Part shown: piece after piece, positions 19,230-50,971 of the stretch
Layout of the letters: the number at the start of each line of letters is the position of its first letter
How positions within the stretch are numbered: position 1 is the first letter of the stretch
DNA from: Escherichia coli
GTDB lineage: Bacteria; Pseudomonadota; Gammaproteobacteria; Enterobacterales; Enterobacteriaceae
Assembly (NCBI RefSeq): GCF_022846255.1
Contig: NZ_AP025682.1
Reading direction: 5' to 3' (one strand)
DNA: 64,000 nucleotides
The notes under the pieces: model-generated
What the model saw: the letters and a program-made list of their open reading frames with translations, nothing else
What the model was told of the DNA's origin: nothing
Database searches by the model: none
Made by a program: the position numbers and the translations under genes

Positions 19230-19360
19230 AACCAAACGACTCGGGGTGCCCTTCTGCGTGAAGGCTGAGAAATACCCGTATCACCTGATCTGGATAATGC
19301 CAGCGTAGGGAAGTCACGGACCACCAGGTCATTGCTTCTTCACGTTATGGCAGGAGCAAA
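19230..19360 (+). promoter_or_regulatory. TPP (thiamine pyrophosphate) riboswitch in the thiM leader
   Basis: CGACTCGGGGTGCCCTTCTGCGTGAAGGCTGAGAAATACCCGTATCACCTGATCTGGATAATGCCAGCGTAGGGAAGTCACGG matches the thiM aptamer (thi-box CUGAGA ... ACCUGAUCUGGAUAAUGCCAGCGUAGGGAA); the AGGAG SD just before the ATG is sequestered by the expression platform. Confidence 0.9.
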
Positions 19361-35498: not shown

Positions 35499-35585
35499 AA
35501 AAAATAAGCCCGTGTAAGGGAGATTACACAGGCTAAGGAGGTGGTTCCTGGTACAGCTAGCATTTTATGGGTTATGTTTTTCAGC
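35499..35585 (-). ncRNA. cyaR: CyaR (RyeE) Hfq-dependent sRNA
   Basis: Minus strand reads GCTGAAAAACATAACCCATAAAATGCTAGCTGTACCAGGAACCACCTCCTTAGCCTGTGTAATCTCCCTTACACGGGCTTATTTTTT, matching CyaR including the terminator hairpin and U-tract. Confidence 0.85.
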
Positions 35586-35669
35586 GAAACGGATGATAAC
35601 CTTAATAAATGCAGCTGTATGTGATCGGTTTCTAAGAATTTTCCATCCGGGAAAAATAATCGAAATTAA

Positions 35670-48000: not shown

Positions 48001-48184
48001 CTGGATAAAGCGTGACCACCTGAATGGTTGGATAGTCCACTTCCGGCAGCGCCGAAACGGGCAGGGCGCGATAACCGATAATCCCGGCGAGTAAGATCGC
48101 CACCATCAGCAGCGTGGTGGCGACAGGACGCATAATAAACAGGCGCGACGGGCCGCCTGTGCTGCTCGGGGGTAACACCTGCAT
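45062..48184 (-). CDS. mdtB: RND multidrug efflux pump subunit MdtB
   Basis: 1040 aa RND permease, paralog of MdtC. Confidence 0.95.
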
Positions 48185-49431
48185 CAGGAGCGCGCTCCTT
48201 TTTTCGCGTATTCGCGGCTGGTGGCTTTATCTTCCGGGGTAGTGGCGCTCTGGGCTTCCACGACTTCCACTTTCGCCCCTTCGGTCAGGCGATCAATGCC
48301 GTCCGTCACTACGCGGTCGCCCGCAGAAATACCTGCACGGATCACCACTTTCTGACTGTCCTGAATGCCCGGTGTCACCAGATGTTTGCTGACTTTGTTT
48401 TCGCTATTCAGTACCCAGACAAAATGGCCTTCGTTGCCCATTTGCAGTGCGGCGGTGGGGATCACCACGGCGTTTTGTTCGGTATCGACTAACATGCGAG
48501 CGTTAACAAACTGATTAGGGAAAAGCGCATCATCCTGATTATTAAAGCGAGCTTTCACTTTAATCGTACCGGTAGTGGCATCGATTTGGTTATCGAGACT
48601 TAACAGCGTGCCTTCACTTAACTTCTTCGAGTTGGTGCGATCCCAGGCTTCTACCACCAGCGGTTTTCCGGCTTTTTGCGCCTGTACAACGGTGGCGATA
48701 TCGCTTTCCGGCAGAGTAAAGACCAGATCGATAGGATGCGTCTGGGTGATCACCACAATCCCGGTGGTGTCGCCACTGGAGATTTGGTTACCAACATCAA
48801 CCTGCTTGAGACCAACGCGACCATCAACTGGTGCGGTGATACGGCTCCAGTCGAGTTGCAGCTGTGCGCTGGCGACGCTTGCTTCATCAGCCTTAATGGT
48901 ACCTTCGGTTTCACTGACCAGCGCTTGTTGGGCATCCAGTTCCTGACGAGATACGAGATTGGTTTTTGCCAGTTGTTGATAACGCGCCAGGTCACGGCGG
49001 GCGTTGGCGAGCGTGGCTTTATCTTTTGCCAGTTGGCCCTGGGCTTGTGCTAATGCAACTTTGAACTGGCTTGGGTCAATTTCTGCCAGTAAATCGCCTG
49101 CTTTGACCTGCTGGCCTTCCTGGAAATGTAACGCCATCAGTTGACCGTCCACGCGGCTGCGCACCGTAACAGTATTAGCGGCGGTAATGGTGCCAAGCCC
49201 GGTGAGGTAACGCGGAACAGCCTGTTCTACTGCGGTCGCCGCCTGAACCGGAGCTAATGGGCCGGCACGCATACCACGGCGACCACCCGCTGGCGATTGC
49301 TGCGCTTGTTTCGTCGCCCCAGGGGCTGCACTCTGGGAGTCATTGCGGCCTTGCCAGAACCAGAATGCGGCGATGGCGGCGATAACCACCACGATTACGA
49401 TTACCCAACGGGATTTATAACTGCCTTTCAT
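48184..49431 (-). CDS. mdtA: RND membrane fusion protein MdtA
   Basis: 415 aa from [26 protein letters not shown]; the 464-aa track ORF is an upstream extension. Confidence 0.9.
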
Positions 49432-49475
49432 CGTTAAGAGTTTCTCTTCCTGAAACGTTTCGCGGAATGATACTA

Positions 49476-49493
49476 GTGTAGCCAGCCAATAAG
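49476..49493 (-). promoter_or_regulatory. candidate BaeR box upstream of mdtA
   Basis: Minus strand reads TTTTTCTCCCTTATTGGC, 17/18 match to the published BaeR consensus TTTTTCTCCATDATTGGC (recalled from memory). Confidence 0.4.
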
Positions 49494-49663
49494 GGAGAAA
49501 AATGGAGGAATTATGAAACACTGTCGGGAATCGTCTGAATGACGGGCACATTTGCGAGCACGCATCCAGTAATAACACATGAAACTATTTTATCTACGCG
49601 TTAGCGATAGACTGCTTGCATGGCGAAAGGAGATAAGCCGACGATTTCAGCGGGACGCTGAAA

Positions 49664-49805
49664 CGGAAAAGCCCCTCCCGAGGAAGGGGCCTTAAATAAG
49701 GAAAGGGTCATGATGAAGTGGATCATCATCGTGGTGCTCTTAGTGATTAGCTACCCAGCATACTAAGACTACCAGGGCGGGGGAAACCCCGCTCTACCCT
49801 CACTC
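49664..49805 (-). ncRNA. Sib-family antisense sRNA (antitoxin RNA); boundaries approximate
   Basis: Antisense to the ibs ORF; minus-strand terminator hairpin CCCCTTCC-TC-GGGAGGGG followed by CTTTTCC at about 49664-49690. The 5' end is estimated from the usual Sib length of about 140 nt. Confidence 0.45.
49710..49766 (+). CDS. Ibs-family type I toxin, 18 aa (MMKWIIIVVLLVISYPAY)
   Basis: Short hydrophobic ORF with SD AAGGAAAGGG; Ibs family signature MMK...LLVIS..AY. A or B assignment not attempted. Confidence 0.7.
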   Translation: MMKWIIIVVLLVISYPAY

Positions 49806-49991
49806 CTGAAAGTATGCCTTCACGGTCCAATTGTCAATCCGCAGACTTTGCAGTCTGCGATCCTGCCAGCAAATATTCTTTGCGAGTCGTTACGCAATAA
49901 TCACACTTGAAACTATTTTATCCGCAAGTCAGCGATAGACTGCATACAGGGCGAAAGGAGGTAAGCCGAAGATTTCAGCGGGACGCTGAAA

Positions 49992-50133
49992 CGGGAAAGC
50001 CCCTCCCGAGGAAGGGGCCTTAAATAAGGAAAGGGTCATGATGAAGCTACTCATCATCGTGGTGCTCTTAGTCATTAGCTGGCCAGCTTACTAAGACTAC
50101 CAGGGCGGGGGAAACCCCGCTCTACCCTCACTC
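49992..50133 (-). ncRNA. Sib-family antisense sRNA, second copy; boundaries approximate
   Basis: Same hairpin and terminator, offset by about 328 bp from copy 1. Confidence 0.45.
50038..50094 (+). CDS. Ibs-family type I toxin, 18 aa (MMKLLIIVVLLVISWPAY)
   Basis: Second copy within repeat unit 2; same SD and context. Confidence 0.7.
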   Translation: MMKLLIIVVLLVISWPAY

Positions 50134-50311
50134 CTGAAATTATGTCACTCCGCCCTTAGTGTCAATCGACGGCTCTCCGTTCTTGCGAGGCGAATAGCAA
50201 AATTTTCTGCGCCGCCGGGCCTAATTCTGAAAGTTTCTTCGTTTGCTCTTATTTCATTATTGCAATCGGTATGATACCGGACCTCAATAATTCTCTAAGA
50301 AAGGATTTCTT

Positions 50312-50971
50312 ATGAGCGAACAAATCACGTTTGCCACCAGCGATTTTGCCAGTAACCCGGAACCACGTTGCCCCTGCATTTTGCTGCTGGATGTTTCTGG
50401 CTCGATGAGCGGCAGACCCATTAATGAACTTAACGCCGGATTGGTTACCTTTCGCGATGAGCTGCTTGCCGACCCGCTGGCCTTAAAAAGAGTGGAACTC
50501 GGTATTGTGACGTTCGGCCCAGTGCATGTGGAACAACCCTTTACCAGCGCCGCTAATTTTTTCCCGCCCATCCTGTTTGCCCATGGGGATACACCAATGG
50601 GCGCCGCCATTACCAAAGCCCTGAATATGGTTGAGGAGCGCAAACGTGAGTATCGCGCCAATGGTATTTCCTATTATCGTCCGTGGATTTTCCTGATTAC
50701 CGATGGCGCACCAACCGATGAGTGGCAGGCTGCTGCCAACAAGGTGTTTCAGGGGGAAGAAGATAAGAAGTTTGCCTTCTTTTCCATCGGTGTTCAGGGG
50801 GCGGATATGAAGACGCTGGCCCAAATCAGCGTTCGTCAGCCTTTGCCATTGCAGGGATTACAATTCCGTGAACTGTTTAGCTGGTTATCCAGTTCGCTGC
50901 GTTCGGTTTCCCGCTCCACGCCGGGAACGGAAGTTGTGCTGGAAGCGCCAAAAGGCTGGACGTCAGTGTGA
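50312..50971 (+). CDS. yegL: vWA-domain protein YegL (TerY-like)
   Basis: 219 aa; MIDAS motif DVSGSMSG and downstream ITDGAPTD; 4-bp overlap with the next gene. Confidence 0.9.

Follow-up and report, generated by a model that had tools for sequence, protein, structure and literature searches.

The window analysed here is a 64,000-nucleotide stretch of Escherichia coli DNA. Its mdtA-yegL intergenic region (49432-50311, 880 nt) almost certainly contains two intact tandem ibs/sib type I toxin-antitoxin modules. The locus is the one annotated in E. coli K-12 as sibA/ibsA and sibB/ibsB, carries annotation in thousands of genomes, and is in that sense already known, as is the tandem duplication of ibs-sib (Fozo et al. 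2010, PMC2887945). The flanking genes, identified from the list of open reading frames (ORFs) and from RefSeq annotation at homologous loci, and the repeat units between them are as follows.

48184-49431, minus strand: mdtA, with its start codon at 49431-49429
49551-49878: repeat unit 1, 328 bp, mdtA-proximal, in the slot of K-12 sibB/ibsB
49879-50206: repeat unit 2, 328 bp, yegL-proximal, in the slot of K-12 sibA/ibsA, with a B-type core (mosaic)
50312-50971, plus strand: yegL

A repeat search aligned 49551-49839 with 49879-50167 as a gapless direct repeat of 289 nt with 86% identity and a spacing of 328, and Tandem Repeats Finder reported 49570-50167 with a period of 328, 1.8 copies, 88% matches, and zero indels. 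An earlier note on this DNA had described two tandem units of about 328 bp between mdtA and yegL; the period of 328 returned by both searches agrees with that description, and the repeat is now defined as two 328-bp units over 49551-50206. Identity between the units is uneven, amounting to 95 to 100% in the core that is predicted to be transcribed and to about 50% in the final 70 nt. Over the complete 328-nt register it is 81%, because the final ~70 nt of each unit diverge.

The ibs reading frames

Each unit carries a short ORF on the plus strand, preceded by a Shine-Dalgarno region that was read from the sequence. These are the 18-codon Ibs ORFs that the earlier note had placed on this strand, one to a unit.

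49698-49707, plus strand: Shine-Dalgarno region of ibs 1, AAGGAAAGGG
49710-49766, plus strand: ibs ORF 1, 18 codons and stop, MMKWIIIVVLLVISYPAY
50026-50035, plus strand: Shine-Dalgarno region of ibs 2, AAGGAAAGGG
50038-50094, plus strand: ibs ORF 2, 18 codons and stop, MMKLLIIVVLLVISWPAY

The Shine-Dalgarno sequence AAGGAAAGGG is conserved in every K-12 ibs gene. Between the two ORFs, 8 of the 57 nt are different, and two of these changes are synonymous. Three of the 18 peptide residues are different (W/L at position 4, I/L at position 5, and Y/W at position 15), which corrects the count of four given previously. Ibs 1 is identical to K-12 IbsB (MMKLLIIVVLLVISFPAY) at 15 of 18 residues and Ibs 2 at 17 of 18, residues 4, 5, and 15 reading WI..Y in Ibs 1, LL..W in Ibs 2, and LL..F in K-12 IbsB. 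There is no resemblance of either peptide to IbsA, which has 19 residues. Both peptides display the traits of the Ibs family, namely, a length of 18 to 19 residues, strong hydrophobicity, an MMK/MMR start, an aromatic C-terminal end, and homology to IbsA-E.

Among complete E. coli genomes, a 66-nt stretch of ORF 1 is found with at least 99% identity in 129 (100% in 12 of the 12 matches listed), and the ORF 2 allele is found with at least 99% identity in 402. For the two alleles, all 18 of the 18 matches listed are 100% identical and annotated as "type I toxin-antitoxin system Ibs family toxin"; ORF 1 corresponds to WP_100249716.1 (strain 7/2) and ORF 2 to WP_100249772.1. The identity to K-12 IbsB and the RefSeq names of the identical ORFs thus point to membership of both peptides in the Ibs family. 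RefSeq uses the name "ibsA" for the A-type ORF only, B-type ORFs being given the generic "Ibs family toxin," and in all RefSeq records examined apart from K-12 the Sib RNAs are unannotated.

In K-12, overproduction of Ibs peptides of 18 to 19 residues is lethal, and the peptides damage the envelope (PMC2943612). Salmonella IbsA is reported to be toxic as well and to inhibit the F_oF_1 ATP synthase, which is a possible target (2025 preprint, 10.1101/2025.05.26.656083). The K-12 record describes IbsB only as a "putative toxic peptide," and the two peptides of the window would be toxic by homology.

The 5' termini mapped for the ibsC and ibsD transcripts, when aligned onto the window, fall at approximately 49646-49648 in unit 1 and 49974-49976 in unit 2, and 49608-49613 holds a conserved TAGACT that could serve instead as the -10 element of ibs. 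In alignments, the A/B-type upstream sequence showed no homology to the mapped ibsC and ibsD promoters, nor to the C/D/E units.

The antisense Sib RNAs

On the minus strand, the Rfam SIB_RNA model (RF00113) was matched over its full length (1-147 of 147) at 49695-49837, with 137 bits and an E value of 4e-28, and at 50023-50165, with 141 bits and an E value of 4e-29. The gathering score of this family is 56, and the two matches are far beyond chance; the same model gave no further Sib match in the window. The antisense Sib-like RNA that had been proposed for each unit is therefore recovered as a full-length family member in both. Another repeat family and a chance pair of ORFs were considered as well and are ruled out by the Rfam scores and by synteny in more than 5,000 genomes.

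The Rfam model extends from the -35 box to a point before the terminator, and the RNA ends were therefore taken from the annotated genes of the K-12 reference (NC_000913.3), where sibA measures 144 nt and sibB 136 nt. The resulting features, with putative promoters, are as follows.

49666-49801, minus strand: Sib RNA 1, 136 nt, ends by alignment to annotated K-12 sibB
49668-49693, minus strand: Sib 1 terminator hairpin, 11-bp stem and 4-nt loop
49809-49837, minus strand: putative Sib 1 promoter, TTGACA (49837-49832), 17-nt spacer, TACTTT (49814-49809)
49994-50129, minus strand: Sib RNA 2, 136 nt, ends by alignment to annotated K-12 sibB
49996-50021, minus strand: Sib 2 terminator hairpin, stem as in Sib 1, followed by UUUCC as in K-12 SibB
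50137-50165, minus strand: putative Sib 2 promoter, TTGACA (50165-50160), 17-nt spacer, TAATTT (50142-50137)

Each Sib spans the entire cognate ibs ORF together with its translation initiation region. In both, position +1 is a G located 7 nt past the -10 element: that of Sib 1 is at 49801, in a layout that matches K-12 sibB, and that of Sib 2 is at 50129, downstream of a promoter flank equal to that of K-12 sibA. The predicted folds have energies of -60.1 kcal/mol for Sib 1 (z of -4.3 versus shuffles) and -60.5 kcal/mol for Sib 2 (z of -4.4) and in both, a closing stem is combined with three internal hairpins, an unpaired linker, and the terminator. The 3' arm of the Sib 1 terminator extends into the U-tract, leaving UC unpaired at the 3' end. 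An intrinsic terminator for each Sib, as claimed in the earlier note, is thus present as a predicted 11-bp hairpin with a U-tract at the K-12-aligned 3' ends. By homology to the mapped K-12 ends, each Sib would have its own promoter and intrinsic terminator and would be transcribed as an RNA of about 136 to 145 nt.

Generic scans, whose promoter and terminator counts equalled the shuffled expectation, recovered few of these signals. The sigma-70 scan called neither Sib promoter, the -10 elements TACTTT and TAATTT being weak matches, and the terminator scan called one of the two Sib terminators, that of Sib 2 going unreported because its U-run is short.

Two other RNA elements of the window were found with Rfam models. 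The CyaR/RyeE small RNA is matched over its full length at 35502-35587 on the minus strand (100.7 bits, gathering score of 47) and is the expected neighbor of yegQ in E. coli. A TPP riboswitch aptamer at 19232-19328 on the plus strand (71.2 bits, gathering score of 54.3) is presumably the leader of a thiamine operon.

B-type cores, a mosaic unit, and variation among strains

Both units were compared with all five K-12 sib/ibs pairs. Sib 1 is 91.9% identical to K-12 SibB and 74.3% identical to SibA, and Sib 2 is 96.3% (131/136) identical to SibB and 75.0% identical to SibA; identity to SibC-E is 56 to 70% for each. At the sequence level, both units are of the SibB/IbsB type, and an A-type unit is absent from the window. 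The alignment with K-12 that the earlier note had put forward as a check thus gives the expected Sib/Ibs match but not a pair of sibA and sibB, as both cores are B-type.

Unit 1 lies in the same slot as K-12 sibB/ibsB (b4437/b4668) and resembles that unit throughout, with segment-wise identities of 98% and 92% in the flanks and 93% in the core. Both Sibs share with K-12 SibB the length of 136 nt, the ends, the helices, and the terminator, but the copy closer to SibB is the one in the sibA slot and not the one in the sibB slot. This copy, unit 2, takes the place of K-12 sibA/ibsA (b4436/b4667) and has the position of that subtype, being yegL-proximal with sibA-type flanks and promoter. Its left flank, upstream of ibs, has 88% identity with the sibA unit of K-12 and 79% with the sibB unit, the right flank has 85% and 53%, respectively, and the Sib promoter flank is identical to that of sibA (TTGACA-17-TAATTT) through +1. 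For the core of unit 2, in contrast, identity is 96.8% with the K-12 sibB unit and 77.6% with the sibA unit. This core is 75% identical to SibA itself and has 18 rather than 19 codons, without the MMKHVIILVI of IbsA. Neither unit contains the core of the sibA/ibsA subtype, which comprises the 144-nt SibA and the 19-codon MMKHVIILVILLVISFQAY. Judged by these segment-wise identities, unit 2 is a mosaic in which sibA-type flanks and promoter enclose a B-type core.

Over the 951-nt region 49400-50350, the window differs from strain A37 at a single place, a block of four consecutive bases that reads TGGA in the window and ATAC in A37.

49719-49722: 4-nt variable block, TGGA in unit 1; CTAC at the equivalent 50047-50050 in unit 2

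This block corresponds to the P6 hairpin loop of the Sib RNA (Sib +80 to +83) and to ibs codons 4 and 5. The earlier note implied that the units are direct orthologues of K-12 sibB/ibsB and sibA/ibsA that accumulated point mutations after an old duplication. Position agrees with such an origin, as do the flanks (98% and 92% to the sibB unit for unit 1, 88% and 85% to the sibA unit for unit 2) and the identical, sibA-type promoter of unit 2. The reading is nevertheless improbable, given that the core of unit 2 sides with sibB, with 18 codons and a B-type 5' hairpin, and that the affinity switches sharply at both boundaries of this core, which is unlike drift. Furthermore, the lone difference from A37 consists of adjacent bases, and trees of core and flanks on nine loci are incongruent. 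The mosaic unit 2 and the single 4-nt block relative to A37 instead point to sequence exchange, by recombination or conversion, between units and between strains. The divergence after duplication that had been proposed therefore holds insofar as the copies differ but is too simple an account of how they came to do so.

Of 5,426 complete genomes of E. coli, 5,419 contain a match to the same 951-nt region, flanked by mdtA and yegL. The number of units between these genes is one in strain 100248, two in K-12, O18, A37, A42, and the window, and three in O157:H7 86-24 and strain 7/2. The arrangement with two B-type units is common to the window, O18 (phylogroup B2-type), A37, and A42. The three-unit arrays hold B-type units as the window does: in strain 7/2 the unit 1 ORF is identical to that of unit 1 in the window, and on the left side, unit 2 of the window has a flank similar to those of O157 units 2 and 3. 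In these arrays, unlike in the window, an A-type unit adjoins yegL, and the window resembles such an array from which the A core is missing and the outer flank and promoter are kept.

The most likely origin of the mosaic is unequal crossing-over or gene conversion inside an array of two or three units. By one route, unequal crossing-over in a B, B', A array such as those of O157 and strain 7/2 would have deleted the A core; by another, the A core would have been converted by a B core. The data would fit either direction of the event.

Alleles of the 4-nt block across nine loci are TGGA, ATAC, CTAC, CGAC, and CACG, and they combine freely with TAC, TGG, or TTC at codon 15. On the sequences compared, this pattern suggests an exchange of cassettes more than drift by point mutation. 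A broader reading, tentative and rather less probable than not, is that allelic variation at the locus is combinatorial, with cassettes for the P6 loop and codons 4 and 5 and for codon 15 and the TRD1 loop being reshuffled on a near-invariant background.

An 8-bp hairpin, CGCAGACT-TTGC-AGTCTGCG, is located at 49841-49860 in the inter-unit spacer, immediately upstream of the -35 box of Sib 1. This hairpin is kept after every unit that precedes another unit (K-12 unit 1, O157 units 1 and 2, and A37 unit 1) and absent after the last, yegL-proximal unit, and it has a U-run on neither strand.

Across 48 kb (14000-62000), the window is collinear with E. coli, and the best identity among the 5,426 complete RefSeq E. 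coli genomes is 98.1 to 98.5%, the nearest being the B2 strains O18, PMV-1, and ABU 83972. Complete genomes therefore include no close representative of the source lineage. The intergenic region itself diverges from O18 by 0.57%, compared with 1 to 3% for mdtA, yegL, and pphC, and this high conservation is consistent with constraint acting on both strands.

Specificity elements and the relationship between the units

K-12 Sib RNAs are about 140 nt long, are constitutive, and repress their cognate ibs (Han et al. 2010, PMC2943612); SibB is a ligand of ProQ (Pandey et al. 2020, PMC7192607). In SibC, TRD1 (+46 to +68), in a hairpin loop, pairs within the ORF, and TRD2 (+99 to +115), which forms the single-stranded linker, targets the translation initiation region. 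Either element alone suffices for repression, and jointly they set cognate specificity (PMC2943612).

By analogy with K-12, each unit of the window would specify an 18-residue hydrophobic membrane Ibs peptide from the plus strand and a constitutive 136-nt Sib from the minus strand, the latter complementary throughout to both the ibs ORF and the ribosome-binding region of ibs. The Sib would pair with the ibs mRNA via TRD1 in the ORF and TRD2 in the translation initiation region, and this pairing would lead to a translation block and mRNA decay; toxin would be made only when the level of Sib drops. It is from the K-12 homologues that we infer repression of the cognate ibs by Sib 1 and Sib 2.

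The specificity elements were placed on the two Sibs by alignment. Sib 1 and Sib 2 show nine differences in total, four of which fall in the TRD1-equivalent (+42, +48, +49, and +57), four in the P6 hairpin loop (+80 to +83), and one in the 3' tail (+135); in the predicted fold, none of them breaks a helix. The three amino acid differences between the peptides come from these changes in Sib, because Sib and ibs share the same DNA, and relative to K-12 sibB/ibsB the peptide changes at positions 4, 5, and 15 likewise map to the P6 loop and the TRD1-equivalent loop. A run of 51 nt (49668-49718, Sib +84 to +134) is identical between the units and contains the full TRD2-equivalent (+92 to +111).

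Such a distribution of differences bears on whether the units are decaying, non-expressed relics, one or both of them hitch-hiking in the intergenic region. That copies can be lost is evident from the existence of single-unit strains. Here, however, both units retain the start codon, Shine-Dalgarno sequence, open frame, -35 TTGACA, -10 element, helices, and terminator, the differences between them lie in loops outside the structural helices, and the region is better conserved than the adjacent coding genes, all of which makes relics highly improbable. Decay of one copy was likewise rejected, since all signals are intact.

With two intact modules as the preferred explanation, a sub-hypothesis compatible with it concerns their relationship, namely, that the units are functionally redundant, each Sib repressing both ibs mRNAs, so that they amount to one toxin-antitoxin system at doubled dosage. 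The balance of the evidence tips slightly toward this possibility. Cross-repression by each Sib is predicted from the criteria of Han et al. because the TRD2-equivalent is identical: the 51-nt run covers all of it, one TRD suffices, and contiguous helices of 22 to 25 bp at a TRD repress (PMC2943612), whereas the non-cognate K-12 pairs SibA/SibB and SibC/SibD share runs of only 14 to 17 nt at most. On the other hand, four of the nine differences fall in the TRD1-equivalent and four in the P6 loop, which was suggested as a possible auxiliary element for TRD2 function (Han et al., PMC2943612), and the difference in this loop may weaken cross-repression. In addition, a run of 36 nt is common to K-12 SibD and SibE, which are reported not to cross-react (PMC2943612); in that pair, the variable part of TRD2 differs.

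Two other type I systems, the ldr/rdl long direct repeats and zorO-orzO/zorP-orzP, likewise have a small, hydrophobic toxin that is countered by an antisense RNA and are likewise duplicated inside one intergenic region (PMC2887945, PMC3919570). Neither has any sequence relation to ibs/sib, and the mode of pairing differs, as the ibs/sib antitoxin covers the functional mRNA over its whole length, while the target of Rdl and OrzO is the 5' untranslated region.

Gene callers often overlook genes as tiny as ibs and the RNAs antisense to them, and their confirmation aids annotation here. Beyond correct annotation the finding is of little importance, a modest addition being that the lineage has two SibB-type modules and no SibA-type module. 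With differences on the specificity elements and an identical translation initiation target, the two units are convenient natural material for tests of antitoxin cross-talk. If the combinatorial reading of the allelic variation were true, selection or recombination would diversify the determinants of RNA-RNA specificity and the toxin residues along with them. The two B-type modules, sharing TRD2, would then cross-protect and would constitute a natural experiment on the evolution of antisense specificity.
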